Shown: in pieces, positions 3,233 to 39,729 of the stretch | How the letters are laid out: every line of letters begins with the position of its first letter | Numbering within the stretch: position 1 is the stretch's first letter | Program-made: the position numbers and the translations under genes | DNA from: a virus | Reading direction: 5' to 3' (one strand) | UHGV virus genome: UHGV-0230849 | Length of the DNA: 39,729 nucleotides | The notes under the pieces: generated by a model | The model's input: the letters and a program-made list of their open reading frames with translations, nothing else | Told to the model about the DNA's origin: nothing | Databases searched by the model: none

Positions 3233-4135
3233 TCAGTAGTTATGTACTGAAGGAGGTAATTCTTTATTCTTAAGTCTCATCCATGCGGAAAGATTCGTTG
3301 GTCCGTCTGGCTCATTGATATCAACATCTCGTGAGTGATTGATTAAAACGTCTCTCGCTATATCGATAATACGGGAGAACTCATAACCGCAGTCATGACA
3401 TCTGCCGGAATAGTTCGATTGAATTTGTTTCAGCGCCGGATACAGTTCGCGGAATAATGCCTGTGAGCGGTTGGCATAATCCCATAGCCATACAAGGCTG
3501 TTTGCTTCTTTTGCAGAAAGCTCGTTGGTTTTCTTCTCTTGTTTGCCGATGAACTCACCTTCAAGCACTACCCTGTGGATGTACTCTACGGCTTGCGGTA
3601 TCTGAGATGCATCAAGCTCTTCAATACTTTCCACATTGAAACGCTGATGAATCATTGCATAAGCTTCTGGGTACATTAGATGCTTTTTGCTGACTAGCAT
3701 ATTTACAGCATCACGAAGCGGAGTCCTGTCATCAACAGATGTTTTCTTACGTGCATTTTCTGCCTTTCCCTTTGTCCAGTAGTCATGCAGTACAGTAAAG
3801 CATTCTTCCTGGTACTGAATCAGTTTATCGCGGATGTCAGCTCGAACTTTCTCAGGGTTGATGCTGAACAGCCATCCATTTAACTTCTTCAAAGGAAGGC
3901 AGAGTAGCTTACGAAGCTTCCCATCAGCGGCAACCATATTCATATGAATACAGTTGAACTTATCTAGTTGTTTCATAAGTTTTTGTTGCTGAGTACCCCA
4001 ACTCATTCCAAGGTTTTCAACGATTGGCTTCATCGCAACGTATGCAACTCCGGCAGCCATGGCGGTGATAATTTGCTGACCGTTGAATGGTACGTAAGAG
4101 GTGTTCACTGCTTCTAAAATTGCTATACTATTCAT
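3233..4135 (-). CDS. ant: Antirepressor Ant (P22 immI); ORF extends to 4165 but homology suggests start at [10 protein letters not shown]
   Basis: 300-aa product directly downstream of arc in the arc-ant arrangement. Confidence 0.8.
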
Positions 4136-5143: not shown

Positions 5144-5587
5144 TTAGTTAATCCGAGTTGCAAAGTACTCTGCCATCTCCTTAGAGCTAATTTCAGAACC
5201 ACCAACACCCTCAATATAGTTTGATCTCCATGGTGACTCTTCGTGTGTCATGTTCCTCAGTTTCCAGGCAGAAAATTGCCCAAAAACATCCCAGACTTCT
5301 TCTAATAGCTCTAACTGTTCTTCGCTGAATTTTTCAGCATCAAAAGACTCTGGAGAAGGGATAGCGCCATTACCATATTGTTTATAACGGCGATAAAGCT
5401 CAGGGACAACAGGGCCATGCATCCAAGCTTCCATCTTATTCTGAAAAAGAGGCTCGCCAAGCAACGCCAATGAAAAACCCTGAGCATAGTAAACAAGCTT
5501 TTGTAATTTTAAATTAGAGATTGTGTCACCGCTATCCTCGTCACACCGCGACAGGAAGTAGTCGGCGACATCAAAACAAGTAAGCAT
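5144..5587 (-). CDS. Panacea-domain (DUF4065, SocA/GepA-like) protein, putative antitoxin
   Basis: CFDVADYFL...ISNLKLQKLVYYAQGFSLALLGEPLF...EAWMHGPVVPELYRRYKQYG matches the Panacea signature from memory; GGAGG 7 nt upstream of ATG at 5587. Confidence 0.75.
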   Translation of the reverse strand: MLTCFDVADYFLSRCDEDSGDTISNLKLQKLVYYAQGFSLALLGEPLFQNKMEAWMHGPVVPELYRRYKQYGNGAIPSPESFDAEKFSEEQLELLEEVWDVFGQFSAWKLRNMTHEESPWRSNYIEGVGGSEISSKEMAEYFATRIN

Positions 5588-5961
5588 GAACACACCTCCA
5601 TCTTGATAGCCACAGCTAAGTATCCAACTATGTCAAATGTCATTTAATACTATAACAAAGCTATCAGCAATCCTTCGGAGGCTAACTTACAACCACTTTA
5701 GCGACATGTTTAAACCATTACGTTTCACATTTACTGCATTTTCGCCGAAGTTACCTATAAGGTAATGTCACATTTCCTGCAAGTTTCATGCAATGTTGAA
5801 AAGTGAGCTATTCACTTTTCTATGACACCAAACACCAAAAATAGCACTTTTTGCTAAATCATTCGTCCAAGTTGTGGATGGTTTGTCGTTGACACGTTTT
5901 CACACACCACTCCACCAATAAAGTATCATCTGGTATCCTGCGAAAAACTAAGGAGGTTGGT

Positions 5962-15835: not shown

Positions 15836-18001
15836 TTATTGAGGTGTCTCGGCTACTCCGCCGGAGGGGGTTTGAACTTGACGCATAAGACTCGCGAAAT
15901 CCATGCGTTGTGAATGAGTCTGGTCTGCATCTTTAAGAAGCAGCTCAGCGTTAGCACGAGCGTCTTTGCTGCGCTGTTGCTGGAATTGACCTACGAGCTT
16001 GAGGTACTCACGCAGTTCTGCCTGCTTGTCGAGGTCCATATTGTTGAAGATTTCCGCAATCTTCGCGGCGTTGAGTTGGTTTTGGGCTTCAACCTTGGCG
16101 GCTTCAACCTGAATCTGCGCCTGTTGGTTCTCTGCCTTGAGCAATTCAGCCTGACCTTGCAGAAGGATACCCTGCGCCTGAATTTGCTCTGCTGATGGCT
16201 GCTGCGGCTGCTGTTGCGCCTGTTGCACCATCTCCATCTCTTCAGGTGTTTCTGGTTTCTTCAGCCCCATCATCACCAGTTGCTTGTTCGCGTACTCTCG
16301 CATCATCTCGACGCCTTTACCGTCAAGGAGCGTGAAGTATTGCAGCATCAGCATCTGGAACTCTGGAGTACCTTGCGGAACCTTGGTGAGCAATTCCTGA
16401 ATCTCTGCGCGGTTCTGTTCCTTCATGCTCTGGAAGGATGGCCCAACGTCCGTATAGCACTCATAGCGACCGCGAATGTCGTTGAGTGTGACCACATTGC
16501 CTGACTGATAATCGACAACTTGCGCATAGAGTTGAACGTCTTTCTCGCTTCCATCTTCAAGTGTCAGCGTTACATGACGAGGAACGTCATAAATATCGTT
16601 GACCATTGAGGCATAAATCTCGCCATCACGTCGCATTGCGGTAGCCAGGTTATCCTGAAACACGTATGTCTCAAGGTCTGCCCGCATGTTCAGTTGATTG
16701 ACGGTATCGAAAGCGACCTGAGAGTTTGCTGCCTGCGCATCCACGCCAAGACTAGCCACCTCTTTCACTGCGTTGGTGGCGGCCTCAAGCATGTAAGCGT
16801 TGGCTTGCGGCACTTCAGGGTTTTCCATGTAGGAGATTGGACCAATCGGCAGGTCGTTACCGTTTTCATCGGTCTTGTTCTGCAGATAGTACGGATAGTC
16901 ATCATTTCCACCGTACATGTATTCGTAGCCTTCGATTTGCTCAGGGAAGAAGGTCGGTTTCTTCTTCGGTGAACGAGCAACAATATCGGCGTTGAACGAC
17001 ATGATCATGTTACGAAGGCGTTGACCGTCTTTCGTCAGCCTTACCACTCCTTCGTAGCACTCCTTGTCACCAGCGAATGACCATTCTCCATACACTGGAA
17101 CGATTGGAATATGCTCTCCGGCTATCTTCTCGCGGTCTTTCAGGATCTGCGTGCAGGTGATGATCGACTTATACACACGCCGACGCTTCACCTTGCGCTC
17201 TGCTACCTTAATGAATCCACGATTAGCCAGGTCGTCGATGACGTCTTTGATATCCTGCTGGTAATAGCTGACCGGCTCACCTGTCAGCGGGTCGCGATAG
17301 ATGAAGACTTTCTCCTTCTTCTCTTCTACCTCGTAATACTCAGCGACGTAGACGACATCATTCGATACCCACGGAAACAGCCATGTGTCGTTCGGATTCT
17401 GGAAAGATGGCAAGGTATCCGGATCAATACCGTAATCCTCTGCGAACTCTTTCCAGCCATTGCGTGACAAAGCGTTAATCACCGTGCAGTGCTTAGCGTC
17501 GCTCTTATCCATCTGCTTGCTGTTGGCGTCCCATATGACGTGTGAGCAGGCTTCATGGATTGGCAGGCGTCGGATTACCTGATTGTTGCTTGTTGGGTCG
17601 TTATCTTCGTACTGGGTGACCAGACGCCATGCACCAACGCCGGACTCTATCTGCTCACGAACGCCAACGTTAACGGCAATCTTTGCCGTGTTATGGCGCA
17701 TATCAGTACGATACATCCCCATCAACACATCGGCTGCATCAGGATTAGCGCCGTCTTTGGGTCGGAAGAGAACGTCGATAGGGTTCCGGCGCATCTCTGC
17801 GACCAGTTTCCTGACCACCGGGCGAACAACATCGAATTGTCCGCGATATTGCAGGGTAGTGTAGTTTGATAGCCAGTCATCCCATTGCGACACTCGGCTA
17901 AAATACAGGTCATTTGTCGCCTCGGTTCTGGCTTCATCGCTCGCCATCCAGTCCGCGTCAAACTTACACAGAATGGAATTGAGTCTGTTTTCGTCGGCCA
18001 T
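15836..18001 (-). CDS. gp1: Portal protein gp1
   Basis: 721 aa, P22 position and size, Gln-rich C-terminal barrel region. Confidence 0.9.
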
Positions 18002-19501
18002 TTAAGTTCTCCGTGCGATGGGCCTGATTGGGGCTGGTATCTTTTTCTCTTTTGGTTTTTTGATGTCGCGCATCATTTTTGCGAAGCGGCGCATCATGTA
18101 TGCATAGCGAACGGCGGATAGCACGTCGTCGTTAAGCTTGACGATTTTCCCGTTTTCATCACGGTGATAGAGGCGGAACTCCTCAAAGAATGGCTCACAG
18201 GTGTTGAATACTTTGAAGCGACCATCGAGCATCATGTCGCGCAATTCAGTGATGCCAGGCTCAACAGCATTACCGCCATCAGGCCATGTCGCATGCTCCT
18301 GCAACATCATAAAACCAGCATCTGCATACTGCCCTTTGAGCTGCTCACCGCCGCCCTTCTCATGCTGGTTTCCGTCATGAGGCCATGCGGTTGGCACTTT
18401 ATGCGCCCATGATTTAACGGCCCCCCACGCCTGAACGGCTGTTTTTTCTTTCGCCTTCCACACGCGTGAAACGTAGATTGTGTCTGCGTCCTTATCCCAC
18501 CAAAGCTGAACCTGCGCCTGCGGGTGATCCCATCCGAAATCCATACCGCCAATTACATAGAAGTGATCAGGACACTCGAACGGCTGACACTTAATCGTCT
18601 CTTCCGGTATCTGGAAGATTCGACCACTACCCATCGTAGGAATACCGCGAGCACGCGCCTCTCTCTCATGCTCAGGATAGGATGCGATGATTTGCTCTTT
18701 CTGCTCGTCGGTGTAGTGCTCAGCGTCATAGATGGTCATGTTGACCACTTTCTGAGACTTGCTGGGATTCTTCAGGAACTTGGTAACAACGTCAGACATC
18801 CCCATCAGCGGGGTAAACGTCAGAATTGAGAATTGCCCGTATTTGTTTGTACGGGTAAGCCCTTCGCCATAAATGCTGTATGGTGGCTCTTCGTCAAACC
18901 ACACGCCGTGGATTGTGTCACCCTGCCAGCGAGCGCGGCCTTGCGAGTATGGTTTGAAGTAGCAGATTGAAATGCCATCTTCAACGCCATCAGCCGTGTG
19001 ATGCTTAACCAGAAGATGATCAACAAGGTTCGGAAAGAAAGGAGACTTCTTCCAGCTAATGATGTCTTCTTTCGGTATGGAACCGTAGCCCGGCTCGTCA
19101 TTCTCTTCGATACGACCGCACAGGATGCGTTGAGTCGTTTTGGTTACAGTCTCGTTTGTCTCGCCACCAATCCAGAAGACAACAGGCTCATAGAAACGCT
19201 TACCTTTCCACTCCCCGCCATATTTACCATCAGCAGGATAGCCTTTTGTGCCCGGATAACGCCCGGTAAGGTGAAACGCGACTTCAGCAGCACCAGTAAA
19301 TGACTTACCAAGCTGGTTACCAGCCATAAAACATCGCTCTGGATAGTCATGCCCGGCGTCGATGAACTCACGCTGTTTGCTGTATGGCGTAAATTCATAT
19401 AGCAGGTGTGTGTTCCGGTAGTTATCTTCTTCTTCGAGTAGCTCGAGCAACTCGATTTGCTCTTCGTCGCTCAGGTTATCAAGAATCGCGTCCAGTTCCA
19501 C
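18002..19501 (-). CDS. gp2: Terminase large subunit gp2
   Basis: 499 aa; ATPase and nuclease motifs; P22 order. Confidence 0.9.
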
Positions 19502-24289: not shown

Positions 24290-24652
24290 TCATACGTTCT
24301 CCAGTTCGGTGATTTTTATTCCAAGCCGTCCGCCTGGTACTTTCACACCACGAATTACGCGAATGTCATCGAATTGCTCGTCGTCTTCCGCAAATCCGGC
24401 GTGGATAAGGGAGTCGAGTAAACCTTTCAGGATGTTATCGAGGTCGCGGCGGCGGGAGTCTGGAACGTCTGCGATGACTTTGATGCGGAGTCGTGATTTG
24501 GTGAAAATGTCTAACTTGAGTTGGCGGATGATTTTCTGAACGTCTTTTCGGTATTTCTGGCCTTTATCGCTTATGTAATATTGGCTTCCCCGTCTTCGCC
24601 AGTAGGTATTCACCGACGGCGGGTATGGAAGCACAAACTGATATTCGTTCAT
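24290..24652 (-). CDS. rusA: Holliday-junction resolvase RusA
   Basis: PYPPSVNTYW...DSRRRDLDNILKGLLDSL...GGRLGIKITE matches RusA family; 120 aa. Confidence 0.9.
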   Translation of the reverse strand: MNEYQFVLPYPPSVNTYWRRRGSQYYISDKGQKYRKDVQKIIRQLKLDIFTKSRLRIKVIADVPDSRRRDLDNILKGLLDSLIHAGFAEDDEQFDDIRVIRGVKVPGGRLGIKITELENV

Positions 24653-24939
24653 GACTTAATCTTCCCCTCCTTCAGCAGTATCGCCTGCGTCCTGATCACG
24701 CCTTCGAGGTGGTAAAGTCTGGCGTCTTTGTTGTCGAGGTTATGGGTGCGTCGGTCGATTTCATCGTGACACGCACTACAAGCCCATGCGCCGATCAGGT
24801 CGTCAGGTTTCATTCCCGCTCCGCAAATTCCAGCCATCCGGTAATGTGCCAGAACTGTAGTTTCAGGATTACCATTGCATACGCCGTAAATACGTACCTG
24901 GCATTCTCTGCCGCGTGCTTCTTTGCGTAGGTTAGCCAT
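24649..24939 (-). CDS. ybcO: YbcO-like nin-region protein (DUF1364)
   Basis: MANLRKEARGRECQVRIYGVCNGNPETTVLAHYR...CSACHDEIDRRTH resembles DLP12 YbcO; 96 aa. Confidence 0.8.
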   Translation of the reverse strand: MANLRKEARGRECQVRIYGVCNGNPETTVLAHYRMAGICGAGMKPDDLIGAWACSACHDEIDRRTHNLDNKDARLYHLEGVIRTQAILLKEGKIKS

Positions 24940-25678: not shown

Positions 25679-25851
25679 TTCCTCGCACGTTCTCTAAGCC
25701 ACCGGATATCCCACAGGTGAGCCGTATAATTGAAGGTTTTTACGTCAGATTCTTTTGGGATTTGCTTGCGTTTATTTCTGGAGCGTTTCGTTGGAAGGTA
25801 TTTGCAGTTTTCGCAGGTTATGTCGGTGATGCTTCGTCGCTGTCGTCTCAT
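25675..25851 (-). CDS. ninE: NinE (start at [10 protein letters not shown])
   Basis: [58 protein letters not shown] matches lambda NinE. Confidence 0.85.
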
Positions 25852-26288
25852 GCCGCCCTGTCTCCCCATCTTGCTTTCCACTCCAGAGCCAGTCGAGCTT
25901 CGTCTGACCACTTAACGCCACGCTCTGTACCGAATGCCTGTATAAGCTCTAATAGCTCCGCAAATTCGCTTACACGCATCCTGCTGGTTGACTGGCCTAT
26001 TACCACAAAGCCATTCCCGGCAAGGTTAGGAACAACGTCCTGCTGCTTTAATGCTGCTGTAAAAACGCACTTCCAGCTTTCTGCATCCAGCCAGCGACCA
26101 TGCCATTCAACCTGACGAGAGACGTCACCTAAGCAGGCCCATAGCTTCCTGTTTTGGTCTAAGCTGCGGTTGCGTTCCTGAATGGTTACTACGATTGGTT
26201 TGGTTGGGTCTGGAAGGATTTGCTGTACTGCGTGAATAGCGTTTTGCTGATGTGCTGGAGATCGAATTTCAAAGGTTAGTTTTTTCAT
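25848..26288 (-). CDS. ninB: NinB (Orf-family recombination mediator)
   Basis: 146 aa, matches lambda NinB. Confidence 0.9.
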
Positions 26289-29180: not shown

Positions 29181-29474
29181 TTAAAATTCCATTTGTATTT
29201 GATCAGAACGCTCGGTTGCCGCCGGGCGTTTTTTATTGGTGAGAATCGAAGCAACTTGTCGTGCCAATCGAGCCATGTCGTCGTCAACGACGCCCCATTC
29301 AAGAACAGCAAGCAGCATTGAGAACTTTGGAATCCAGTCCCTCTTCCACCTGCTGATCTGCGACTTATCAACTCCCACAGCTTCCGCTGTCTTCTCAGTT
29401 CCAAGCATTGCGATTTTGTTAAGCAACGCACTCTCGATTCGTAGAGCCTCGTTGCGTTTGTTTGCACGAACCAT
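29181..29474 (-). CDS. cII: Transcriptional activator CII (start at MVRANKRNEALRIES)
   Basis: Near-identical to lambda CII (97 aa). Confidence 0.95.
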   Translation of the reverse strand: MVRANKRNEALRIESALLNKIAMLGTEKTAEAVGVDKSQISRWKRDWIPKFSMLLAVLEWGVVDDDMARLARQVASILTNKKRPAATERSDQIQMEF

Positions 29475-29543
29475 ATGTAAGTATTTCCTTAGATAACAAT
29501 TGATTGAATGTATGCAAATAAATGCATACACCATAGGTGTGGT

Positions 29544-29575
29544 TTAATTTGATGCCCTTTTTCAGGGCTGGGATG
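29544..29575 (-). promoter_or_regulatory. nutR: nutR (boxA CGCTCTTAC and boxB GCCCTGAAAAAGGGC)
   Basis: Reverse complement of 29567-29575 is CGCTCTTAC; rc of 29544-29558 is the boxB hairpin. Confidence 0.85.
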
Positions 29576-29592
29576 TGTAAGAGCGGGGTTAT

Positions 29593-29802
<210 letters not shown>

Positions 29803-29808
29803 TTAGTA

Positions 29809-29879
29809 CATGCAACTATTATCACCGCTAGAGGTAAAATAGTCAACACGCACGGTGTTAGATATTTATCCCTTGCGGT
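29809..29879. promoter_or_regulatory. OR: Right operator OR1-OR2-OR3 with divergent PR and PRM
   Basis: OR1 tatcaccgctagaggta (29811-29827), OR2 caacacgcacggtgtta (29835-29851), OR3 tatcccttgcggtgata (29858-29874); PR -10 GATAAT and -35 TTGACT on minus strand. Confidence 0.9.
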
Positions 29880-29890
29880 GATAGATTTAA

Positions 29891-30607
<717 letters not shown>

Positions 30608-30693
30608 GTCCGCAGCAAGAGACTTTATACGCATCTAGATGTAGGAAATAAAAAAGCAGATCCCTACAATAAAAATAAGGAAATCATTAAGAT

Positions 30694-31599
30694 ATGTCGA
30701 TTAACAGCAATAGCGAATCCCTGCATCAAATGCAGCTTTTCCCTGTAGTAGAGGTTGTTTCTGATGATATTCCTATGGGCGTTCTCAATGATGGAACTCC
30801 TTACCTAACTCTCTACGGTCTCGCAAAGTTATGCGGCATTGATGACACGCCACTGAGGGTGTTCACATCAAACTGGAACACAGAGAAAAACAAACCCAGA
30901 GGTCAAAAAGTAGCTGCGTATTTAGCTGAGAAAGGGTTTCATAACGTCGAAAAGCTATACACTCGCGTTTTAAATAGCTCAAACGTGGAAACTCATGCTT
31001 ATCCTGACTATGTTTGCATGGCTATCCTCCGTTACTACGCTCTAGATGCCACCAATTTTGATAGGTCAGTCGCAATAGGTAATTTTGTTCGCTTGGCTGA
31101 GTACACGCTTAAGCGAATGATTTATGAAAAGTCAAATTACAACCCAAATGCTTCAATAGATATCTCATTCGAGAACTATAGAGCAAGGATTAAGCTAAAC
31201 GATCAGATACCGACAACTCATTTTGCAGTATTCAGAGAGATAGCTGACATTGCCATGAATCTGATCGGAGGAGGATTCCCAATGGATGACACCACATCTT
31301 TGGATGGAAGTGTTGGAATTCACTGGGGAAAGTATTGGACAGCTAATGGGCTATCTGAGAAATTCGGGGAAAGGGTGCAGTACCCACATCTATTCCCCGA
31401 AAATTACAGGCAGTCAGCTGCAAATAAGCATATAACAGCTTGGATTTATCCTATTGAGGCACTTGGCGTGTTCAGAAAATGGCTACACGATAATTACGCA
31501 ATGGAAAAACTGCCAAATTACCTTGGGAACAAAAAGATTAGTAACGCCTCTGAGCTATTAGAGTCGATAAAAAAACCAGCACTCCCAAATAAGCATTGA
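30694..31599 (+). CDS. 301-aa protein at the rexAB position; candidate BstA-like abortive-infection protein with KilA-N/Bro-N-like N-terminus
   Basis: Same strand as cI, RBS AAGGAAAT, followed by a terminator; not RexA/RexB-like; N-terminal ...VVEVVSDDIPMGVLNDGTPYLTLYGLAKLCGIDDTPL... Confidence 0.5.
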   Translation: MSINSNSESLHQMQLFPVVEVVSDDIPMGVLNDGTPYLTLYGLAKLCGIDDTPLRVFTSNWNTEKNKPRGQKVAAYLAEKGFHNVEKLYTRVLNSSNVETHAYPDYVCMAILRYYALDATNFDRSVAIGNFVRLAEYTLKRMIYEKSNYNPNASIDISFENYRARIKLNDQIPTTHFAVFREIADIAMNLIGGGFPMDDTTSLDGSVGIHWGKYWTANGLSEKFGERVQYPHLFPENYRQSAANKHITAWIYPIEALGVFRKWLHDNYAMEKLPNYLGNKKISNASELLESIKKPALPNKH

Positions 31600-31612
31600 T
31601 CTCCACCACAGC

Positions 31613-31638
31613 CCGGCATCTGCGCCGGGTTTTCTTTG
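31613..31638 (+). terminator. Rho-independent terminator ending the cI operon
   Basis: cccggc-atctgc-gccggg followed by ttttctttg. Confidence 0.75.
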
Positions 31639-31786
31639 CCTAACGCCCCAAAAAACACATAACCAATTGTATTTATTTTAAAATTAATAGATACAACTCG
31701 CTAAACATCGCAATTCAGATCTCTCGATCACCTTCCCAATCCACACAACCCTGCAAAAAATAAATCTATATAAAAAACATACAGAT

Positions 31787-31857
31787 AACCATCTGCGGTG
31801 ATAAATTATCTCTGGCGGTGTTGACATGAATACCACTGGCGGTGATACTAAGCACAT
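31787..31857 (+). promoter_or_regulatory. OL: Left operator OL3-OL2-OL1 with promoter PL
   Basis: aaccatctgcggtgata, tatctctggcggtgttg, taccactggcggtgata; -35 TTGACA (31821-31826), -10 GATACT (31844-31849). Confidence 0.9.
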
Positions 31858-31888
31858 CAGCAGGACGCACTGACCACCATGAAGGTGA

Positions 31889-31919
31889 TGCTCTTAAAAA
31901 TTAAGCCCTGAAGAAGGGC
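31889..31919 (+). promoter_or_regulatory. nutL: nutL (boxA-like GCTCTTAA and boxB GCCCTGAAGAAGGGC)
   Basis: boxB hairpin at 31905-31919 preceded by a boxA-like element. Confidence 0.85.
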
Positions 31920-32077
31920 AGCATTCAAAGCAGAAGGCTTTGGGGTGTGTGATACGAAACGAAGCATTGGCCGGAAGTGCGAATCCGGATTAGCTGCCAA
32001 TGCGCCAATCGCGGGGTGTTTTCGTTCAGGACTACGACTCCCACACACCACCAAAGCTAACTGACAGGAGAATCCAG

Positions 32078-32404
32078 ATGGATGCACAAACACGCCGCCG
32101 CGAACGTCGCGCAGAGAAACAGGCTCAATGGAAAGCAGCAAATCCCCTGTTGGTTGGGGTAAGCGCAAAACCAGTTAACCGCCCTATTCTCTCGCTGAAT
32201 CGCAAACCGAAATCACGAGTAGAAAGCGCACTGAATCCGATAGACCTTACGGTGCTGGCTGAATACCACGAACAGATTGAAAGCAACCTGCAACGTATTG
32301 AGCGCAAGAATCAGCGCACATGGTACAGCAAGCCACGCAGTGAAATGGGTGTGACTTGTGTTGGTCGCCAGAAAATGAAATTAGGCAGCAAACCACTTAT
32401 TTGA
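32078..32404 (+). CDS. N: Antiterminator N (lambda-like N-terminus, divergent C-terminal ~25 aa)
   Basis: MDAQTRRRERRAEKQAQWKAANPLLVGVSAKPVNRPILSLNRKPKSRVESALNPIDLTVLAEYH... matches lambda N; C-terminus differs. Confidence 0.9.
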   Translation: MDAQTRRRERRAEKQAQWKAANPLLVGVSAKPVNRPILSLNRKPKSRVESALNPIDLTVLAEYHEQIESNLQRIERKNQRTWYSKPRSEMGVTCVGRQKMKLGSKPLI

Positions 32405-32890: not shown

Positions 32891-33061
32891 ATGCAACAGT
32901 TCGCTATTGCAGGGGCGGCATCGGTTCGCCCTTTCAACCCGATTTTATCGGTACAGCATTCACGAAAAAACATTCTAACCGGAGCAGACTTTAAACAACC
33001 AAGAATGAAAAGCTTGCTCGAAAAGATTTGGGATATTTTGAAACAACAAGGCCGTCCATGA
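32891..33061 (+). CDS. cIII: CIII-like protein (56 aa)
   Basis: MQQFAIAG...SLLEKIWDILKQQGRP resembles lambda CIII (MQYAIAG...LIDILNQPG); AAGGAG RBS; longer ORF-track start rejected. Confidence 0.6.
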   Translation: MQQFAIAGAASVRPFNPILSVQHSRKNILTGADFKQPRMKSLLEKIWDILKQQGRP

Positions 33062-33171
33062 GTTTTACAGATAACTGGTCAGACGAAGAATTCATTCGTC
33101 AGATGAACAAAATGCTCAATCAGCACAAAGAACAGGAGAAAGATGATTATTCTGACTCTGAATGATAAGCG
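33058..33171 (+). CDS. Possible small ORF (37 aa) coupled to cIII stop (ATGA overlap)
   Basis: Hand translation MSFTDNWSDEEFIRQMNKMLNQHKEQEKDDYSDSE; at the kil position of lambda; no homology claimed. Confidence 0.3.
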
Positions 33172-33454
33172 TGAAATATCGCAAATAATCGCAAGTTTTA
33201 CTGATGAAGATTACGAACGAATCAACAGTGAAGTTGATCGTCTCTGCAAACGTTGCGACCCAATAAGCGAAATGCTTCGCTCATATAAACCAGATGAACA
33301 CACTAAGGACGCTATCGACTGGCTGGAAGATGATGACTGTAACTATCAGGAAAAAGCCGCTGAATGGTTCTGGGATGCAATAACCGAAAGAGTTAAGGCT
33401 GAATATGCCTTCGCAATATTCAAACGCAGACACATTTATGGAGAAGCAGCATGA
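33143..33454 (+). CDS. Hypothetical protein (103 aa)
   Basis: AGGAGAAAG RBS; overlaps RecT start by ATGA. Confidence 0.55.
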   Translation: MIILTLNDKREISQIIASFTDEDYERINSEVDRLCKRCDPISEMLRSYKPDEHTKDAIDWLEDDDCNYQEKAAEWFWDAITERVKAEYAFAIFKRRHIYGEAA

Positions 33455-34353
33455 GCAATATCGTTGAATTCGTTAAACAGCAGGAGCAGTTATTCTGCGG
33501 AGCATTGACTGAACAGACGGTGACATGGGCTAAGGAAAGCCAGTTTGCAATTCAGTATTTCCAGAAAAATGATTACCTGGCTAAAACGGCACTGGCAAAT
33601 CCAACCAGCGCACAGAACGCCATCATCAATGTTGCGGCGATCGGTATCACCTTAAACCCGGCTAGCAAACTGGCTTATCTGGTTCCGCGCGACGGCATGG
33701 TTTGCCTTGATATCAGTTACATGGGGTTACTTCATCTTGCGCAATCGACAGGATCAATTAAGTGGGGGCAATGCAAACTGGTGTACTCAAACGACACCTA
33801 TGAATCAAATGGCCTTGATTCAGCACCAACCCACAAATACAACGCATTTGGTGAGCGAGGCTCTATTGTTGGTGGTTATTGTACGGTTAAAACAGCAGAT
33901 GGTGACTACCTGACTGAAGAAATGAGTCTGGCAGAAATTAAAGCTGTGGAAGCAACGAGCAAGGCAAAGAATGGACCGTGGAAAACATTCTGGGAAGAGA
34001 TGGCACGTAAAACAATAGTTAAACGCGCCAGCAAATACTGGCCTAAAGCCCAGCGACTGGATAATGCCATTCACCTGCTTAACGAAGATGAAGGTATGCA
34101 TCAGGAACCAGTTATGCCGCACAAATCAGAGGAAGATATCCGCGAAGATGAACGGAAACGCCAGCAGGAAATAATGGAAAAAGCACAACTTCTTTGTGAT
34201 GAAATGACTCAGGCTGAAAACATGGATGATTTGAAGAGATATTTTGCAGAAGCATATCGCCTGACATCTGGAATGAAATTGCAGCAGAACATACAAGCCA
34301 TTTACGCAGAATGCAAAGCGAAACTGGAGGTTGCCAGTGAGCAAACTGTATGA
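33451..34353 (+). CDS. recT: RecT-family single-strand annealing protein
   Basis: GPWKTFWEEMARKTIVKRASKYWP resembles the RecT signature (GPWVTHWEEMAKKTAIRRLFKYLP in Rac RecT). Confidence 0.8.
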   Translation: MSNIVEFVKQQEQLFCGALTEQTVTWAKESQFAIQYFQKNDYLAKTALANPTSAQNAIINVAAIGITLNPASKLAYLVPRDGMVCLDISYMGLLHLAQSTGSIKWGQCKLVYSNDTYESNGLDSAPTHKYNAFGERGSIVGGYCTVKTADGDYLTEEMSLAEIKAVEATSKAKNGPWKTFWEEMARKTIVKRASKYWPKAQRLDNAIHLLNEDEGMHQEPVMPHKSEEDIREDERKRQQEIMEKAQLLCDEMTQAENMDDLKRYFAEAYRLTSGMKLQQNIQAIYAECKAKLEVASEQTV

Positions 34354-34819
34354 AATTGCCAATGAATACGCAAAATTGATGGATTCAGATTTAGAGCCAG
34401 AGATGATTGCTGACACAATAGAAGGCATGGAAGGAGAATTTACCGATAAAATAGAGCAACTTCTTGCCATTATTAAAAATGAGTCTGGTTATGCTGAACG
34501 CCTCAAGGAAGAGGCAAAGTCACTGAATGAAAGAGCAGCAGTAATTCAAAATAAGATTGATAGCATTATGACGTATATAGCGTCATCGCTTGAAATGGTT
34601 GGAAAGAAAAAGATTCGAGCAGGTATTCACCAGGTAACAATCCGCAAACCGTCAGAAACTGTAGAAATCATCGACTCAAGCGCCCTTCCTCCAGAATACG
34701 TTGAGTTTGAAACAACAATTAAAGCCGACAAACTGGCAATCAAACACCAACTAAAAGCAGGAATAAATATCCCCGGCGCTCAACTCAAAGTTGGGAAACC
34801 TTCACTTCTTATCAAATAA
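34337..34819 (+). CDS. Gp157-like protein (Sipho_Gp157 family), GTG start
   Basis: MSKLYEIANEYAKLMDSD... with GGAGG 6 nt upstream of GTG; Gp157-type proteins commonly accompany RecT/Sak recombinases. Confidence 0.6.
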   Translation: MSKLYEIANEYAKLMDSDLEPEMIADTIEGMEGEFTDKIEQLLAIIKNESGYAERLKEEAKSLNERAAVIQNKIDSIMTYIASSLEMVGKKKIRAGIHQVTIRKPSETVEIIDSSALPPEYVEFETTIKADKLAIKHQLKAGINIPGAQLKVGKPSLLIK

Positions 34820-34830
34820 CGGTATCGCCT

Positions 34831-35145
34831 ATGAAAAAGAATCCATGGGAGAAATGGGAAGTCGATTTCTTACGCGAAGTAGCGGCGACAATGCCAGTTG
34901 AAGTTATCGCTGAAAAACTGGAAAGGACTGAAAAAGCAGTAATGGCGAAAGCAACAAGGATTGGCGCTGACATTGTTAGCCGACTTCGTGGAAGACGATG
35001 GACAAGAGCCGAAGTATCACTTTTCGGTAAGTTCTCCGCAGAAGAAATAGCAATTGCAACCTGCCGCTCAATTTATTCAGTAAGGGCTATGCGATACAAG
35101 CTAAAAAAACTCGATGAAGAAAGAGCAGGCATACGAATAAATTAA
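34831..35145 (+). CDS. Hypothetical protein (104 aa)
   Basis: Operon-oriented ORF; no family assigned. Confidence 0.5.
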
Positions 35146-35161
35146 CAAAGAGGAATTTACC

Positions 35162-35326
35162 ATGAGAGGACTTGCATACAATCCCGGCATTCTTCCGGCA
35201 GAAATGATTATTCGCCAACGAGTAAAGCCAATGCCATCGAGAGAGGAATTGCTTAAGAGAAATTCTTTTCCATCAGTGAATCAAAACAAATATCTGAATG
35301 CGATGTTGCGGAGTGGGAAGAAATGA
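35162..35326 (+). CDS. Possible small ORF (54 aa), under the ORF-track cutoff
   Basis: AAGAGGAA RBS then ATG at 35162; stop overlaps next gene start (ATGA). Confidence 0.35.
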
Positions 35327-35874
35327 AACAAATGTCACTAATTGAGATGGATGGTTTTCTGAAAGGTAAATGCATCCCACGAGATTTAAAGGTTAACGAA
35401 ACAAACGCTGAATATCTGGTGCGTAAGTTCGGTGAAGCGGAGGCCAAGATTTCGGCTCTGTCCGAAGACCAGCAGAGAGCGATTGAGTCAATTAAGCAGG
35501 CTGATGCGGCTGTTAAGTTGGCACACGAGAAGTTTTCGGCGCTGGCGGCGGAGAATGAACTGGCTCGTAAGGCAGTTCAGGCATTCTGCGATGTTGTTGG
35601 CGACAACACCGAGGTTATCGCTGAGGTGGTTGGGCGAGATGGCGTTCTGGTTATTTTGGAGGCCATGAAGGCAACAGGAAATATGCCAGCCACCGATGCT
35701 TTTCTGGCTGAAGTACGGGCGCAGGGCGTGGAGATGCTGGCAAAAAATCATCAGAGTATCGTCAATGCACTTAAGGGAGATTCTTTATTTTCTGATGGTG
35801 AATACCGACATGCAGCTATTGTTTCCGCAGCTGTATATTTCGCTGCAGAGCTTCGCAAAGGAGGCAACCAGTGA
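35323..35874 (+). CDS. Hypothetical protein (183 aa)
   Basis: Operon-oriented ORF, helical/Ala-rich; no family assigned. Confidence 0.5.
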
Positions 35875-36171: not shown

Positions 36172-36924
36172 ATGACCAAAATTAACTATCAGGCACTGCG
36201 TGAAGCGGCAGAAAAAGCAACGTGTGGTGTGTGGTCGCTCGAATATGGAGAGGAGAGATTTGATGCTGGTGATGCGCTAATTCATCGCGAGGCTGCTGGA
36301 TATATTCCCATTTGCAGAATTGAAGGAGCGCATCCTGAAAGCGGTTTCGATGAAGATTTCCAAATGGAACAGCAGGCCAATGCTGAATTCATCGCCGCAG
36401 CCAGTCCAGCTACCGTGCTGGCACTGCTGGATGAACGGGAAAGAAACCAGCAATACATAAAACGCCGCGATCAGGAGAACGAGGATATTGCGCTTACGGT
36501 TGGGAAGCTGCGCGTTGAGCTGGAAGGCAAAGACAGCAAAATAGCCAATCTTACCGCCGAACGCGATGCTCTTCGTGAAGGTGAGATGGGCGACGCTAGG
36601 CATAGCAACACACGGGCCGCAGCTGATATCTACTTCCAACTGGTCGAGGAGTGCGAAATTCCTGCTGGCGGATCTCTGGTCGAGTACGTTGACGATATGC
36701 GCGAGAAGCTGGAAGCCGCAGAGAAGCGCATAGCAGAGTTAGAAAGTGATTCTCAGGCACAAAAGTTAGTTGAAGCAATCATTGTTGCGATAGAAAACGA
36801 ACAGGAACGTCTTTTTGATGAAGATTACCTAATGGATTCGAAAGAATGCATTGACGTAATTCGTGAAGAAGTAAAGCGATGGAATGATTCCCGCACCGCT
36901 GGCATTCGCATCAAAGGAGAGTGA
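36172..36924 (+). CDS. Ead/Ea22-like protein
   Basis: N-terminal MTKINYQALREAAEKAT... typical of Ead/Ea22-like prophage proteins; acidic coiled-coil C-terminal part. Confidence 0.5.
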   Translation: MTKINYQALREAAEKATCGVWSLEYGEERFDAGDALIHREAAGYIPICRIEGAHPESGFDEDFQMEQQANAEFIAAASPATVLALLDERERNQQYIKRRDQENEDIALTVGKLRVELEGKDSKIANLTAERDALREGEMGDARHSNTRAAADIYFQLVEECEIPAGGSLVEYVDDMREKLEAAEKRIAELESDSQAQKLVEAIIVAIENEQERLFDEDYLMDSKECIDVIREEVKRWNDSRTAGIRIKGE

Positions 36925-36925
36925 T

Positions 36926-37522
36926 ATGAGCGCTATAACCAAAGAACGTATCGAATTATTCATTAAAAATCCGCTTGATAACGGGCTTACCCGTGGCGAA
37001 CAAATGGAACTGGCACGAATTGCACTGGCATCACTGGAACGCGAACAGATTCGCCACGAGCATGCCAAATGGTCTGACTCCACATTTGGCTGCGTTGGCC
37101 CCATTGGTCCGCTGAAACATCTCTCAAAAGAGGCACTGGAAGCCGAAGCCGAACCAGACGATCTTAGCGAGTGGGCTGATATGCAGTTTCTGTTGTGGGA
37201 TGCACAGCGCCGTGCTGGCATCAGCGATGCTGAAATTACCGCTGCTATGGAAGATAAATTGAAGATCAACATGGAGCGCCAGTGGCCTGAGCCAAAAGAT
37301 GGTGAGCCTCGCTTGCACATTAAAGAACCCGGCAACTCTCCGGTAATTCCGGATGGTTGGGTTATGGTGCCGAAGGAGTTAACCCCGGAAATGATGAGAG
37401 CCGTTCAGATTAGAAGTGAGCTTGGAGGGTATGCCACTTCCAATCTATCTGGTGCATACAATATGTTTTCTGAGTTCTGGAATGTTGCTGTCTCAGCTGC
37501 GCCTAAGGTGGATGATTTATGA
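36926..37522 (+). CDS. DUF550-like protein (MazG-like dATP/dGTP pyrophosphohydrolase-type N-terminal domain)
   Basis: FG...LKHLSKEALEAEAEPDDLSEWADMQFLLWDAQRRAGI...KLKINMERQW resembles DUF550 signature; start at MSAITK. Confidence 0.5.
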   Translation: MSAITKERIELFIKNPLDNGLTRGEQMELARIALASLEREQIRHEHAKWSDSTFGCVGPIGPLKHLSKEALEAEAEPDDLSEWADMQFLLWDAQRRAGISDAEITAAMEDKLKINMERQWPEPKDGEPRLHIKEPGNSPVIPDGWVMVPKELTPEMMRAVQIRSELGGYATSNLSGAYNMFSEFWNVAVSAAPKVDDL

Positions 37523-37821
37523 ATCTATATCGCTGCCCATTCTGTGGTTCCACTGTGCTTAACATCGGATACTCATTCAGTATCAGAGGGAAAATGCGCT
37601 ATGTGTCATGCAAATGTGGTGCCCAAGGACCAGAAAAACGAACTAAATCTGAAGCGATTTCTTCATGGAATAGTCGAATGAAAGTATGGGTTTATGATCC
37701 AGAAACAATATTAAACGTTGAAGAGCGCAGGAGAACGGAAGTCTATATTCATAACCTTAATGAAGATGGATTTACACCAGTGCTTGTAAAGGCTACTCCG
37801 CAGGAGGTTAACCGTGGCTAA
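37519..37821 (+). CDS. Lar-family restriction-alleviation protein (zinc-ribbon)
   Basis: MNLYRCPFCGS...CKCGAQGPEKRTKSEAISSWNSR matches the Lar-family pattern CPFCG...C.CGA.GP...A...WN.R. Confidence 0.65.
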   Translation: MNLYRCPFCGSTVLNIGYSFSIRGKMRYVSCKCGAQGPEKRTKSEAISSWNSRMKVWVYDPETILNVEERRRTEVYIHNLNEDGFTPVLVKATPQEVNRG

Positions 37822-38462: not shown

Positions 38463-38681
38463 ATGTACTTGACACTTCAGGAGTGGAACGCACGCCAGCG
38501 ACGCCCAAGAAGCCTTGAAACAGTTCGTCGATGGGTGCGCGAATGCAGGATATTCCCTCCTCCGGTTAAGGATGGAAGAGAGTATCTGTTCCACGAATCA
38601 GCGGTAAAGGTTGACTTAAATCGACCAGTAACAGGTAGCCTTTTGAAGAGGATCAGAAATGGGAAGAAGGCGAAGTCATGA
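38463..38681 (+). CDS. xis: Excisionase Xis
   Basis: MYLTLQEWNARQRRPRSLETVRRWVRECRIFPPPVKDGREYLFHESAVKVDLNRP... matches lambda Xis. Confidence 0.97.
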   Translation: MYLTLQEWNARQRRPRSLETVRRWVRECRIFPPPVKDGREYLFHESAVKVDLNRPVTGSLLKRIRNGKKAKS

Positions 38682-39729
38682 GCGCCGGGATTTACCCCCT
38701 AACCTTTATATAAGAAACAATGGATATTACTGCTACAGGGACCCAAGGACGGGTAAAGAGTTTGGATTAGGCCGAGACAGGAGAATAGCAATCACTGAAG
38801 CTATACAGGCCAACATTGAGTTATTTTCAGGACACAAACACAAGCCTCTGACAGCGAGAATCAACAGTGATAATTCTGTTACGTTACATTCATGGCTTGA
38901 TCGCTACGAAAAAATCCTCGCCAGCAGAGGAATCAAGCAGAAGACACTCATAAATTACATGAGCAAAATTAAAGCAATAAGGAGGGGTCTGCCTGATGCT
39001 CCACTTGAAGACATCACCACAAAAGAAATTGCGGCAATGCTCAATGGATACATAGACGAAGGCAAGGCGGCGTCAGCCAAGTTAATCAGATCAACACTAA
39101 GCGATGCATTCCGAGAGGCAATAGCTGAAGGCCATATAACAACAAACCCGGTCTCTGCCACTCGCGCAGCAAAATCAGAGGTAAGGAGATCAAGACTTAC
39201 AGCTGACGAATACCTGAAAATTTATCAAGCAGCAGAATCATCACCATGTTGGCTAAGACTTGCAATGGAACTGGCTGTTGTTACCGGGCAGCGAGTTGGT
39301 GATTTATGCGAAATGAAGTGGTCTGATATCGTAGATGGATATCTTTATGTCGAGCAAAGCAAAACAGGCGTAAAAATTGCCATCCCTACAACATTGCATG
39401 TTGATGCTCTCGGGATATCAATGAAGGAAACACTTGATAAATGCAAAAAGATTCTTGGCGGAGAAACCATAATTGCATCTACTCGTCGTGAACCGCTTTC
39501 ATCCGGCACAGTATCAAGGTATTTTATGCGCGCACGAAAAGCATCAGGTCTTTCCTTCGAAGGGGATCCGCCAACCTTTCACGAGTTGCGCAGTTTGTCT
39601 GCAAGACTCTATGAGAAGCAGATAAGCGATAAATTTGCTCAACATCTTCTCGGGCATAAGTCGGACACCATGGCATCACAGTATCGTGATGACAGAGGCA
39701 GGGAGTGGGACAAAATTGAAATCAAATAA
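38659..39729 (+). CDS. int: Integrase Int (tyrosine recombinase)
   Basis: 356 aa, MGRRRSHERRDLPPNLYIRNNGYYCYRDPRTGKEFGLGRDRRIAITEAIQANIELF... near-identical to lambda Int; overlaps xis as in lambda. Confidence 0.97.
   Translation: MGRRRSHERRDLPPNLYIRNNGYYCYRDPRTGKEFGLGRDRRIAITEAIQANIELFSGHKHKPLTARINSDNSVTLHSWLDRYEKILASRGIKQKTLINYMSKIKAIRRGLPDAPLEDITTKEIAAMLNGYIDEGKAASAKLIRSTLSDAFREAIAEGHITTNPVSATRAAKSEVRRSRLTADEYLKIYQAAESSPCWLRLAMELAVVTGQRVGDLCEMKWSDIVDGYLYVEQSKTGVKIAIPTTLHVDALGISMKETLDKCKKILGGETIIASTRREPLSSGTVSRYFMRARKASGLSFEGDPPTFHELRSLSARLYEKQISDKFAQHLLGHKSDTMASQYRDDRGREWDKIEIK

Follow-up and report, generated by a model that had tools for sequence, protein, structure and literature searches.

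The recombination (Rec) modules of lambdoid phages have been surveyed in 325 genomes by Zheng, Casjens, Davidson, Amundsen and Smith (Genome Res 2025, PMC12315714), whose main text gives 84 of 246 Enterobacteriales lambdoid modules as missing a nuclease gene. Phage HK140 is classed there as 'SAP-4 + MuGam, no nuclease, no SSB', where SAP stands for single-strand annealing protein and SSB for single-stranded DNA-binding protein; MuGam is the name given to its Gp157 protein, and the main text counts MuGam alone as anti-RecBCD in this phage. HK639 is described as the only panel phage with two anti-RecBCD genes, GamL and MuGam (PMC12315714). The present work concerns a Rec module of the HK140 type in the virus genome UHGV-0230849, a prophage sequence of 39,729 nucleotides that is called the window below. 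As read from sequence comparison, the module spans 33143–35145 and holds, in this order, an open reading frame (ORF) for a protein with a predicted Gam fold (ORF103), a RecT annealase, a Gp157 protein, and a helix-turn-helix (HTH) protein resembling P22 Abc1 and Mu gp9 (ORF104).

With a probability of roughly 0.7, this is a nuclease-free, four-gene Rec module of the HK140 type in a prophage that combines lambda immunity with P22-like headful packaging. It is another copy of an already catalogued type, and its two additions to what is known, the Gam-fold ORF upstream of recT and the pairing of the RecT tail with Gp157, are both modest. An earlier note on this DNA had implied that such a module is unusual or incomplete, which is at odds with nuclease-free modules being an established class, as the proportion given in the main text of Zheng et al. 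indicates. The interval assigned to the unit in that note, 33451–34819, captured two genes correctly and fell short of the full set of four.

Gene content, coupling and conservation of the module

The early-left (pL) operon lies on the plus strand of the window, where 16 ORFs stand between the end of N (32404) and xis (38463), with the module in the middle. Its annealase belongs to the RecT family (PF03837, E 2.3e-33, 115.9 bits against a cut-off of 24, residues 31–212; phrog_148, E 1.9e-91) and is 91–98% identical in amino acids to the RecT proteins of HK140, mEpX1, Gally and EC.P3. The following gene encodes a Gp157-family protein (PF05565, E 1.2e-36, 126.6 bits against 28.6, profile positions 1–162 of 162; phrog_253, E 2e-53), and PF05565 is matched by all 32 aligned Gp157 homologs. 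The presence of a SAP and an anti-RecBCD-type gene, contiguous in the early-left operon and accompanied by neither nuclease nor SSB, places the module in the P22 functional type and the HK140 sequence type.

The search for a nuclease compared the full set of 16 plus-strand ORFs lying between N and xis with Pfam, and ten of these plus four further ORFs with PHROGs. No match to the YqaJ/lambda-Exo, RecE, PD-(D/E)xK, DnaQ or HNH families was found in the scanned operon ORFs, nor any to the SSB family among the early-left ORFs, while lambda Exo, Bet and Gam and P22 Erf, Abc1, Abc2 and Arf gave no tblastn match in the whole window. The nin-region ORFs scanned likewise gave no exonuclease family. 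The only nuclease-type genes found are those of YbcO and RusA, beside that of NinB in the nin region; both count among the usual lambdoid auxiliaries, and neither is a resection enzyme. The view that RecT and Gp157 form a module here with no phage exonuclease, already put forward in the earlier note, is thus borne out by Pfam, by PHROGs and by the tblastn search with lambda Exo.

Judged from their start signals, ORF103, recT and gp157 are translationally coupled. ORF103 is served by an AGGAG of its own and ends in a stop that overlaps the ATG of recT (ATGA at 33451), and gp157 overlaps the last 17 nt of recT. The program-made gp157 ORF begins at TTG 34331, directly abutted by a GGAGG (34326–34330) that sits 6 nt before GTG 34337; this spacing, together with the 160 residues obtained from the GTG, the length common to all database homologs, identifies GTG 34337 as the right start, and both this start and the coupling to recT had been correctly proposed before. 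Nearly all proteins of the ORF103 family end in E-[A/V]-A, and the corresponding codons, GGAGAAGCAGCATGA, hold the Shine-Dalgarno sequence and the overlapping recT start (33438–33454). The C-terminus of ORF103 is therefore constrained, in relatives down to 24% identity, by the recT coupling signals that its codons carry.

The cassette is 93–95% identical in nucleotides in phages Gally, HK140, mEpX1, Kapi1 and others, and has 395 relatives in IMG/VR. In 80 of these loci, as well as in Gally and HK140, the order ORF103–RecT–Gp157–ORF104 is invariant and lambda exo is absent. When viral contigs were searched with Gp157, lambda Gam and Mu Gam, most of the matches were near-identical copies, which are informative on synteny and yield thin profiles. 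The ORF103–RecT–Gp157 triad is kept in Enterobacter and Mixta, with Gp157 61–69% identical, and Serratia keeps RecT–Gp157 behind a 117-residue ORF. ORF104 is linked less tightly than the triad: the Mixta locus and several others have no detected homolog downstream of Gp157. No nuclease Pfam families were called in the flanks of the Enterobacter, Mixta and Serratia loci or of those with distant ORF103 relatives. In Serratia symbiotica (L168–L170), the ORF before recT (3755–4108) shows no detectable relationship to ORF103, Gam or GamL and may be a fourth type of occupant of the gam slot, and an ORF104 homolog (49% identity) lies uncalled after Gp157 (5566–5829). Two 1.9-kb contigs filed as Micromonospora sp. 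and Streptomyces sp. (L279, L280) carry an enterobacterial ORF103–RecT–Gp157 cassette, with a RecT core 89% identical to that of the window, and probably represent assembly contamination.

Pairing of the RecT tail with Gp157

The RecT cores (residues 1–215) are 54–97% identical across the collected loci, and their C-terminal ~70–85 residues fall into two classes between which no homology is detectable. The first class, with the consensus LCDxMxxAExMxxLKxxFxxAYxxTxGxxLQxNVQAIYxECKxKLE, is present in 27 of 27 intact loci in which Gp157 follows the annealase, namely the window, 14 loci from species genomes, and 12 others (HK639, KO-TP1, PA-1, 15G and Aeromonas phiA005, with Enterobacter, Serratia, Mixta, Pantoea and metagenomic prophages). 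Two further tail-bearing loci are uninformative, one (L288) being cut by a contig end and the other having a frameshifted tail. In the latter (L293:3188–3390, Escherichia sp. ESNIH1) the recT frame breaks within the tail, which is detectable in another frame; this is likely a frameshifted copy, or else a sequencing error.

Conversely, Gp157 was not detected in any of the nine loci lacking this tail. In eight of them (VT2phi_272, vB_YenM_22 and six from species genomes) its slot is filled by a lambda-Exo-like gene, and in the ninth (L262) neither Gp157 nor Exo is present. The annealase C-termini of all eight Exo loci align as one class with the C-terminal domain (CTD) of lambda Beta, five of them significantly by tblastn (33–56% identity). 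The split between tail plus Gp157 and Beta-like CTD plus Exo is perfect in the loci examined, with a Fisher's exact test of 8e-9 for a 28-versus-9 table (barely changed with 27), a figure that overstates independence since the loci are related. The place of the joint carries more weight than this figure. An Enterobacter locus (L167) has a core 97% identical to that of the window, whereas tail (65%) and Gp157 (64%) have diverged together, which indicates a mosaic joint at the boundary between core and tail. Pantoea phage PdC23, one of the 27 loci, holds an Erf-family annealase that ends in the same tail (56.5% identity over 46 residues, E 3e-15), followed by an inserted HNH gene and then by Gp157 at 62% identity.

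The CTD of Red-beta has been reported to bind lambda Exo (PMC6393309), and by analogy the RecT tail may be a docking module for Gp157, which would fill the partner role of Exo without being a nuclease. The co-variation of the sequences suggests likewise that Gp157 is a physical partner of the annealase. In the main text of Zheng et al. (PMC12315714), 'shuffling of partner interaction domains' is named as a likely cause of the promiscuity of modules and left 'beyond the scope'. The main rival for this pairing is that it reflects only the linkage of adjacent DNA in mosaic exchange, with no protein contact. Two points favour this rival: the tail-coding DNA abuts and overlaps gp157, so that linkage may account for some of the co-variation, and the loci, being related prophages, are not phylogenetically independent. 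Nevertheless, the joint recurs at the same intragenic domain boundary on two unrelated cores, RecT and Erf; the pairing persists with an HNH gene in between in PdC23 (apparently also in phage Louie, by annotation only); and the alternative tail aligns with a CTD that is itself a known Exo binder (PMC6393309). Linkage alone is regarded as an unlikely, if serious, explanation.

The nature of Gp157

The role of Gp157 as an annealase partner is better supported than a role in end binding. Across phyla, gp157 genes adjoin annealases of the RecT, Erf, Rad52/Sak and Sak4 families. The proposal that Gp157 binds linear dsDNA ends and blocks RecBCD comes only from annotation sources (the PHROG name and PMC12315714) and goes with a putative kinship to Mu Gam: PHROGs labels phrog_253 as 'Mu Gam-like end protection', a sub-threshold match to Phage_Mu_Gam (PF07352) occurs in 8 of 32 Gp157 homologs (best E 1e-3), and a global alignment of Gp157 with Mu Gam displays matching motifs (GKxK...G..xxR.PS..I... 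and NK.AI...G...G...I). Several results fall short of establishing this kinship. The PF07352 match of the window protein, colinear and full-length as it is, reaches 17.3 bits, under the cut-off of 28.3. Profile comparisons by hhalign with the Mu Gam family are not significant (P 0.15, 0.088 and 0.065), even with Gp157 proteins of Vibrio, Bacillus and Pseudomonas added, and the Gp157 profile misses PDB entry 2p2u, which Mu Gam finds at 3e-7. Gp157 is acidic (net charge −4) and Mu Gam near neutral. An AlphaFold2 (AF2) model of the monomer, built on 32 homologs of at least 60% identity, has a mean predicted local distance difference test score (pLDDT) of 68, is confident only for a long helix (residues 21–88) and a beta hairpin, falls below 50 over the C-terminal 50 residues and, with this poor C-terminal half, found no fold match in Foldseek. 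In PHROGs, Mu Gam falls in another family (phrog_491). Four distant 'host-nuclease inhibitor' proteins that might have connected Gp157 to Mu Gam were rejected, all of them being plain Sipho_Gp157 with no Mu_Gam signal.

These results leave a Mu Gam-like, end-binding Gp157 plausible but unproven. The competing view, in which Gp157 is not an end binder of the Mu Gam/Ku kind but another annealase accessory (a loader, mediator or regulator acting on RecT or SSB), with RecBCD controlled by ORF103 alone, draws on the same failed profile tests and difference in charge, as well as on the four annealase families that Gp157 neighbours and the annealase tail that co-varies with it, which points to a protein–protein role. 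Against it stand the name given by PHROGs and the MuGam class in the main text of Zheng et al. (PMC12315714), the full-length and colinear character of the sub-threshold matches, the Mu gp9 homolog that follows Gp157 just as Mu gp9 neighbours Mu gam, and the slot that Gp157 and Mu Gam share in Firmicutes phages (PMC8093625). On balance, a purely accessory Gp157 is considered possible and rather improbable.

ORF103, a Gam-like protein upstream of recT

The family of ORF103 comprises ~53 cluster representatives among 1.84 billion proteins and corresponds to no Pfam family; its members are ~100 residues long, the exceptions being a few spurious matches to long proteins and certain copies that are truncated or chimeric. 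Fold, motif and slot, three independent lines of which none is decisive alone, converge on the family predicted from the position of the gene, that of lambda Gam. First, the AF2 model of ORF103, for which 26 homologs with identities as low as 22% were used, has a pLDDT of 83 and a predicted template modelling (TM) score of 0.70, and agrees with the Gam fold of PDB 2uuz/5mbv. In a Foldseek search against 350,542 chains, GamS entries stood at ranks 2, 3 and 14 and had the top TM-scores of the list (0.50–0.63), with E-values that were not significant. Second, a 23-residue BLASTP match (E 1e-4) links ORF103 to the lambda-type Gam that replaces it in phage Dewey (E 0.004 for lambda Gam itself), and is centred on DDDxxFQE, the best-conserved motif of the ORF103 family. 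The Dewey gene (L003:3651–4076) is annotated with a 43-residue N-terminal extension past the GamS-like start. When the ORF103 profile was compared by hhalign with lambda-type Gam, the result was 29% (P 6e-4); with Gam and GamL combined it rose to 69% (P 4e-5, 68 colinear columns), and the control of GamL against Gam gave 95%.

Third, the gene upstream of RecT cores 73–96% identical in species genomes is variously Gam, GamL or of the ORF103 type, and such alternation is seen in Dewey as well. Among 22 loci with the same RecT core in GTDB species-representative genomes (two of them from one assembly), the preceding gene is lambda-type Gam in four, GamL in seven and ORF103-type in five, and six of the seven GamL loci precede cassettes of RecT tail and Gp157. 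ORF103 relatives of 24–32% identity still lie upstream of RecT–Gp157, in one case with an extra gene in between. The composition is likewise acidic and DNA-mimic-like, with a net charge of −9 for ORF103 and −4 to −14 across its family, against −10 for GamS and −8 for GamL.

On these lines ORF103 is probably a Gam-fold relative, and its action as a RecBCD inhibitor is the favoured expectation, held with somewhat less confidence. The sequence searches gave negative results as well: ORF103 had no Pfam match to the Gam profile PF06064 at E <= 0.1 and none to P22 Abc2, Gam was absent among its 53 matches in the 1.84 billion representatives and from a profile search of the PDB, and phmmer searches of PDB sequences with ORF103 and Gp157 returned only coiled-coil noise, as did profile searches. 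The Gam fold of this protein (gp42 in HK140) appears to have been previously unrecognised, since the main text of Zheng et al. lists only MuGam as anti-RecBCD in HK140. Alternatively, ORF103 might be a RecT accessory, like P22 Arf for Erf, or have an unrelated early function, in which case the resemblance to Gam would be convergent and RecBCD would not be inhibited. The coupling of ORF103 to recT, its constant travel with RecT–Gp157, the missing N-terminal motif of Gam and GamL (MNAY..DR.E) and the weak sequence statistics would all fit such a role, which is judged improbable beside the convergence of fold, motif and slot.

ORF104, an HTH protein related to Mu gp9 and P22 Abc1

ORF104 has an isoelectric point of 10.0 and two HTH repeats. 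It shares phrog_323 (E 3.5e-20) with P22 Abc1 (1.3e-23) and Mu gp9 (5.2e-29), and hhalign scores of 96.8% (P 2e-10) against the Mu gp9 family and 85% (P 6e-6, 77 colinear columns) against P22 Abc1 were obtained. A direct BLASTP match was found to Mu gp9 (E 5e-5) and none to Abc1. By sequence similarity, ORF104 is thus a homolog of Mu gp9 and probably also of P22 Abc1. Its homolog in Gally (L001:5962–6276) is annotated as 'Anti-RecBCD protein 1, similar to P22 Abc1', a relationship that is invisible to BLASTP and upheld by profile comparison. Mu gp9 is encoded directly upstream of Mu gam, and ORF104 adjoins gp157, so that a gp9-type gene recurs beside a 'Gam-like' gene.

Alternatives to a functional, nuclease-free module

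A divergent exonuclease might be hidden in ORF103, ORF104, the 183-residue EaE-like ORF or another ORF of the operon, which would make the module a conventional pair of exonuclease and annealase. Several pL-operon ORFs have no assigned function, and remote nucleases may evade Pfam. However, the candidates are accounted for in other ways: ORF103 is confidently modelled with five helices and a Gam fold, ORF104 has two HTH repeats and homology to Mu gp9, and the 183-residue ORF matches only families of unknown function, with just 14 residues aligned to P22 EaE. Moreover, 0 of 16 ORFs match a nuclease family and lambda Exo finds nothing by tblastn; sister modules with the same RecT core have a lambda-type exo in the exact slot of gp157, and never both; and HK140 is scored as nuclease-free in the main text of Zheng et al. 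(PMC12315714). A hidden exonuclease is therefore regarded as very improbable.

The earlier note had offered these same three ORFs as a possible divergent exonuclease or RecBCD inhibitor. They are real genes, each with a Shine-Dalgarno or overlap signal and conserved in the 80 IMG/VR loci. The inhibitor idea gains from the modelled Gam fold of ORF103 and from the kinship of ORF104 with Mu gp9 and Abc1, whereas the exonuclease idea is abandoned, none of the three being a clear exonuclease.

That the module is a decaying, non-functional remnant of a defective prophage is scarcely credible: the window is a prophage and the related genome L293 has a frameshifted recT tail, but all four ORFs are intact, coupled and 91–99% identical to those of the plaque-forming HK140, mEpX1, Gally and Kapi1, the cassette has its many IMG/VR relatives, and the prophage retains terminase and portal genes of full length, replication and nin genes like those of P22, and lambda-type int and xis ORFs of intact length.

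Prophage context and neighbouring genes

The proteins encoded by cI, cro, cII, N, xis and int in the window are presumably those of lambda. N also matches Pfam N36 in the Pfam scan. The P22-like portion comprises the large terminase (93% amino acid identity), the portal (77%), a DnaB-type replication helicase and the nin genes; with terminase and portal of this kind, the head-packaging genes are of the headful type. The features located in the window are collected in Table 1.

The 35-residue ORF ahead of ORF103 has a stretch, SDEEFI, in common with P22 Arf, whose gene holds the corresponding place in front of erf; the match is not significant. The EaA-like ORF overlaps the Ead/Ea22 gene, which places its true start probably near 36926. 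A BstA abortive-infection protein of 301 residues is encoded between cI and N (30694–31599, plus strand; phrog_6287, E 6e-133; without Pfam family), in the slot where lambda has rexAB, as an anti-phage defence gene in the immunity region.

Table 1. Positions of the Rec module and of other features in the window
Feature	Position	Strand	Remarks
Mosaic prophage segments	15839–19501; 29181–32404; 38463–39729	− (15839–19501)	Lambda-type vs P22-like genes
35-residue ORF	33058–33165	+	Between cIII and ORF103; phrog_17766, E 1.3e-15; in 74/83 related loci
ORF103	33143–33454	+	Acidic, 103 residues, predicted lambda Gam-like fold; gam slot directly upstream of recT; phrog_3486
RecT-family single-strand annealing protein	33451–34353	+	300 residues; SAP-4 sequence type in the main text of Zheng et al. 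2025 (PMC12315714)
RecT C-terminal tail, residues 232–300	34144–34350	+	Goes with Gp157
Gp157-family protein	34337–34819	+	160 residues, GTG start; slot taken by exo in sister modules
ORF104	34831–35145	+	Basic two-repeat HTH protein; starts 12 nt after the Gp157 stop
EaE-like protein	35323–35874	+	183 residues; phrog_614; 14-residue match to P22 EaE; families without known function
dATP/dGTP pyrophosphohydrolase-domain protein, EaA-like	36884–37522	+	PF04447, E 4e-42
Lar-like restriction-alleviation protein	37519–37821	+	Further down the pL operon
NinB/Orf-family recombination mediator	25848–26288	−	PF05772, E 1.1e-54; 96.6% amino acid identity to P22 NinB; nin region, auxiliary outside the module
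YbcO, putative nuclease	24649–24939	−	PF07102, E 3e-44; nin region
RusA Holliday-junction resolvase	24290–24652	−	PF05866, E 1.2e-16; nin region

Proposed mechanism and significance

A headful-packaged, terminally redundant genome would have to circularise by recombination and would later need concatemers. In the mechanism proposed here, the linear ends of the phage DNA would be shielded from RecBCD after injection and again during rolling-circle replication, with ORF103 plugging RecBCD as an acidic DNA mimic in the manner of lambda Gam. Gp157, working at the DNA ends or close to them, would bind the partner-specific tail of RecT and bring the annealase to the ends in the way that lambda Exo does for Beta. 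Single-stranded DNA would be supplied by host nucleases and helicases or by replication and not by a phage exonuclease; RecT could then anneal terminal repeats or homologous strands to produce circular genomes and concatemers, assisted by NinB and RusA from elsewhere in the prophage. An Abc2-like modifier of RecBCD, sought by tblastn with P22 Abc2, is absent from the window, which counts against the proposal as regards resection. The window contains 0 Chi sites against 0.86 expected, which is not significant alone and fits the 'anti-RecBCD, few Chi' class in the main text of Zheng et al. (PMC12315714). Exo–annealase complexes and GamMu have been described as interchangeable end-binding factors (PMC12407980).

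A broader proposal is made tentatively, at less than even odds: Gp157 and the annealase would form a new two-component recombinase, consisting of an end-associated, non-nucleolytic protein on which the tail docks as the Red-beta CTD does on Exo, and the ORF103 family (phrog_3486) would be a third type of Gam-fold inhibitor. Phages of the HK140 type would then use two anti-RecBCD devices and rely wholly on single-stranded DNA derived from the host or from replication, and a ~100-residue acidic Gam-fold family would add a type of RecBCD inhibitor and revise the gene content of their modules. Strict pairing of tail and Gp157 across RecT and Erf cores predicts a protein–protein interface, which would explain how annealases work without an exonuclease of their own; recombineering engineers would also learn from it which accessory gene has to accompany which annealase, portability being limited by partner specificity. 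The proposal is relevant, too, to the question of which phages set off defences, Gabija among them, that respond to end-binding factors (PMC12407980).

Comparison with known systems

Among more distant systems, the modules of Firmicutes phages hold Gp157, Mu Gam, DUF2483 or DUF1351 beside erf–ssb or sak4 (PMC8093625), and Gp157 is a recurrent annealase neighbour in them, as it is in the window. Unlike in the window, Gp157 usually lies upstream of the annealase there and an SSB gene is present; RecT of Firmicutes phages is typically paired with an exonuclease (PMC8093625). The Aeromonas system of PMC13041473 was considered as a further example of RecT–Gp157 and discarded as irrelevant, as it concerns a Red-alpha/beta/SSB operon. 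In phage Mu, a gp9-family HTH gene adjoins gam, the gene that annotation sources equate with Gp157, but the gene order is reversed with respect to the window and Mu has no annealase.

The arf–erf–abc1–abc2 module of P22 resembles that of the window in being nuclease-free, in belonging to a headful lambdoid phage and in having an Abc1-type HTH gene downstream of the annealase. On the other hand, its annealase is Erf and its Abc2 reprograms RecBCD; P22 has neither Gp157 nor a Gam-fold gene, and the window has no counterpart of Abc2. Lambda Red (gam–bet–exo), VT2phi_272 (GamL–RecT–Exo, with a RecT 72% identical to the RecT core of the window) and the Exo-bearing loci of species genomes occupy the same operon position and share a three-slot layout of inhibitor, annealase and partner. 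In these, the third slot holds a 5'–3' exonuclease and the annealase a lambda-Beta-like CTD instead of the Gp157-type tail.

HK639 and Klebsiella phage KO-TP1 (GamL–RecT–Gp157) are identical in architecture to the window, with the same type of RecT tail (50% identity) and Gp157 62–63% identical. Their upstream gene is GamL, which carries the N-terminal MNAY..DRIE motif of lambda Gam (hhalign 95%), whereas that of the window belongs to the ORF103 family and carries the C-terminal DDDxxFQE of Gam. The Rec module of HK140 and mEpX1 is closest of all: it has the same genes in the same order at 93–95% nucleotide identity and belongs to the same functional class, with an annealase and anti-RecBCD function and without a nuclease, and nothing substantive sets the HK140 module apart from that of the window.

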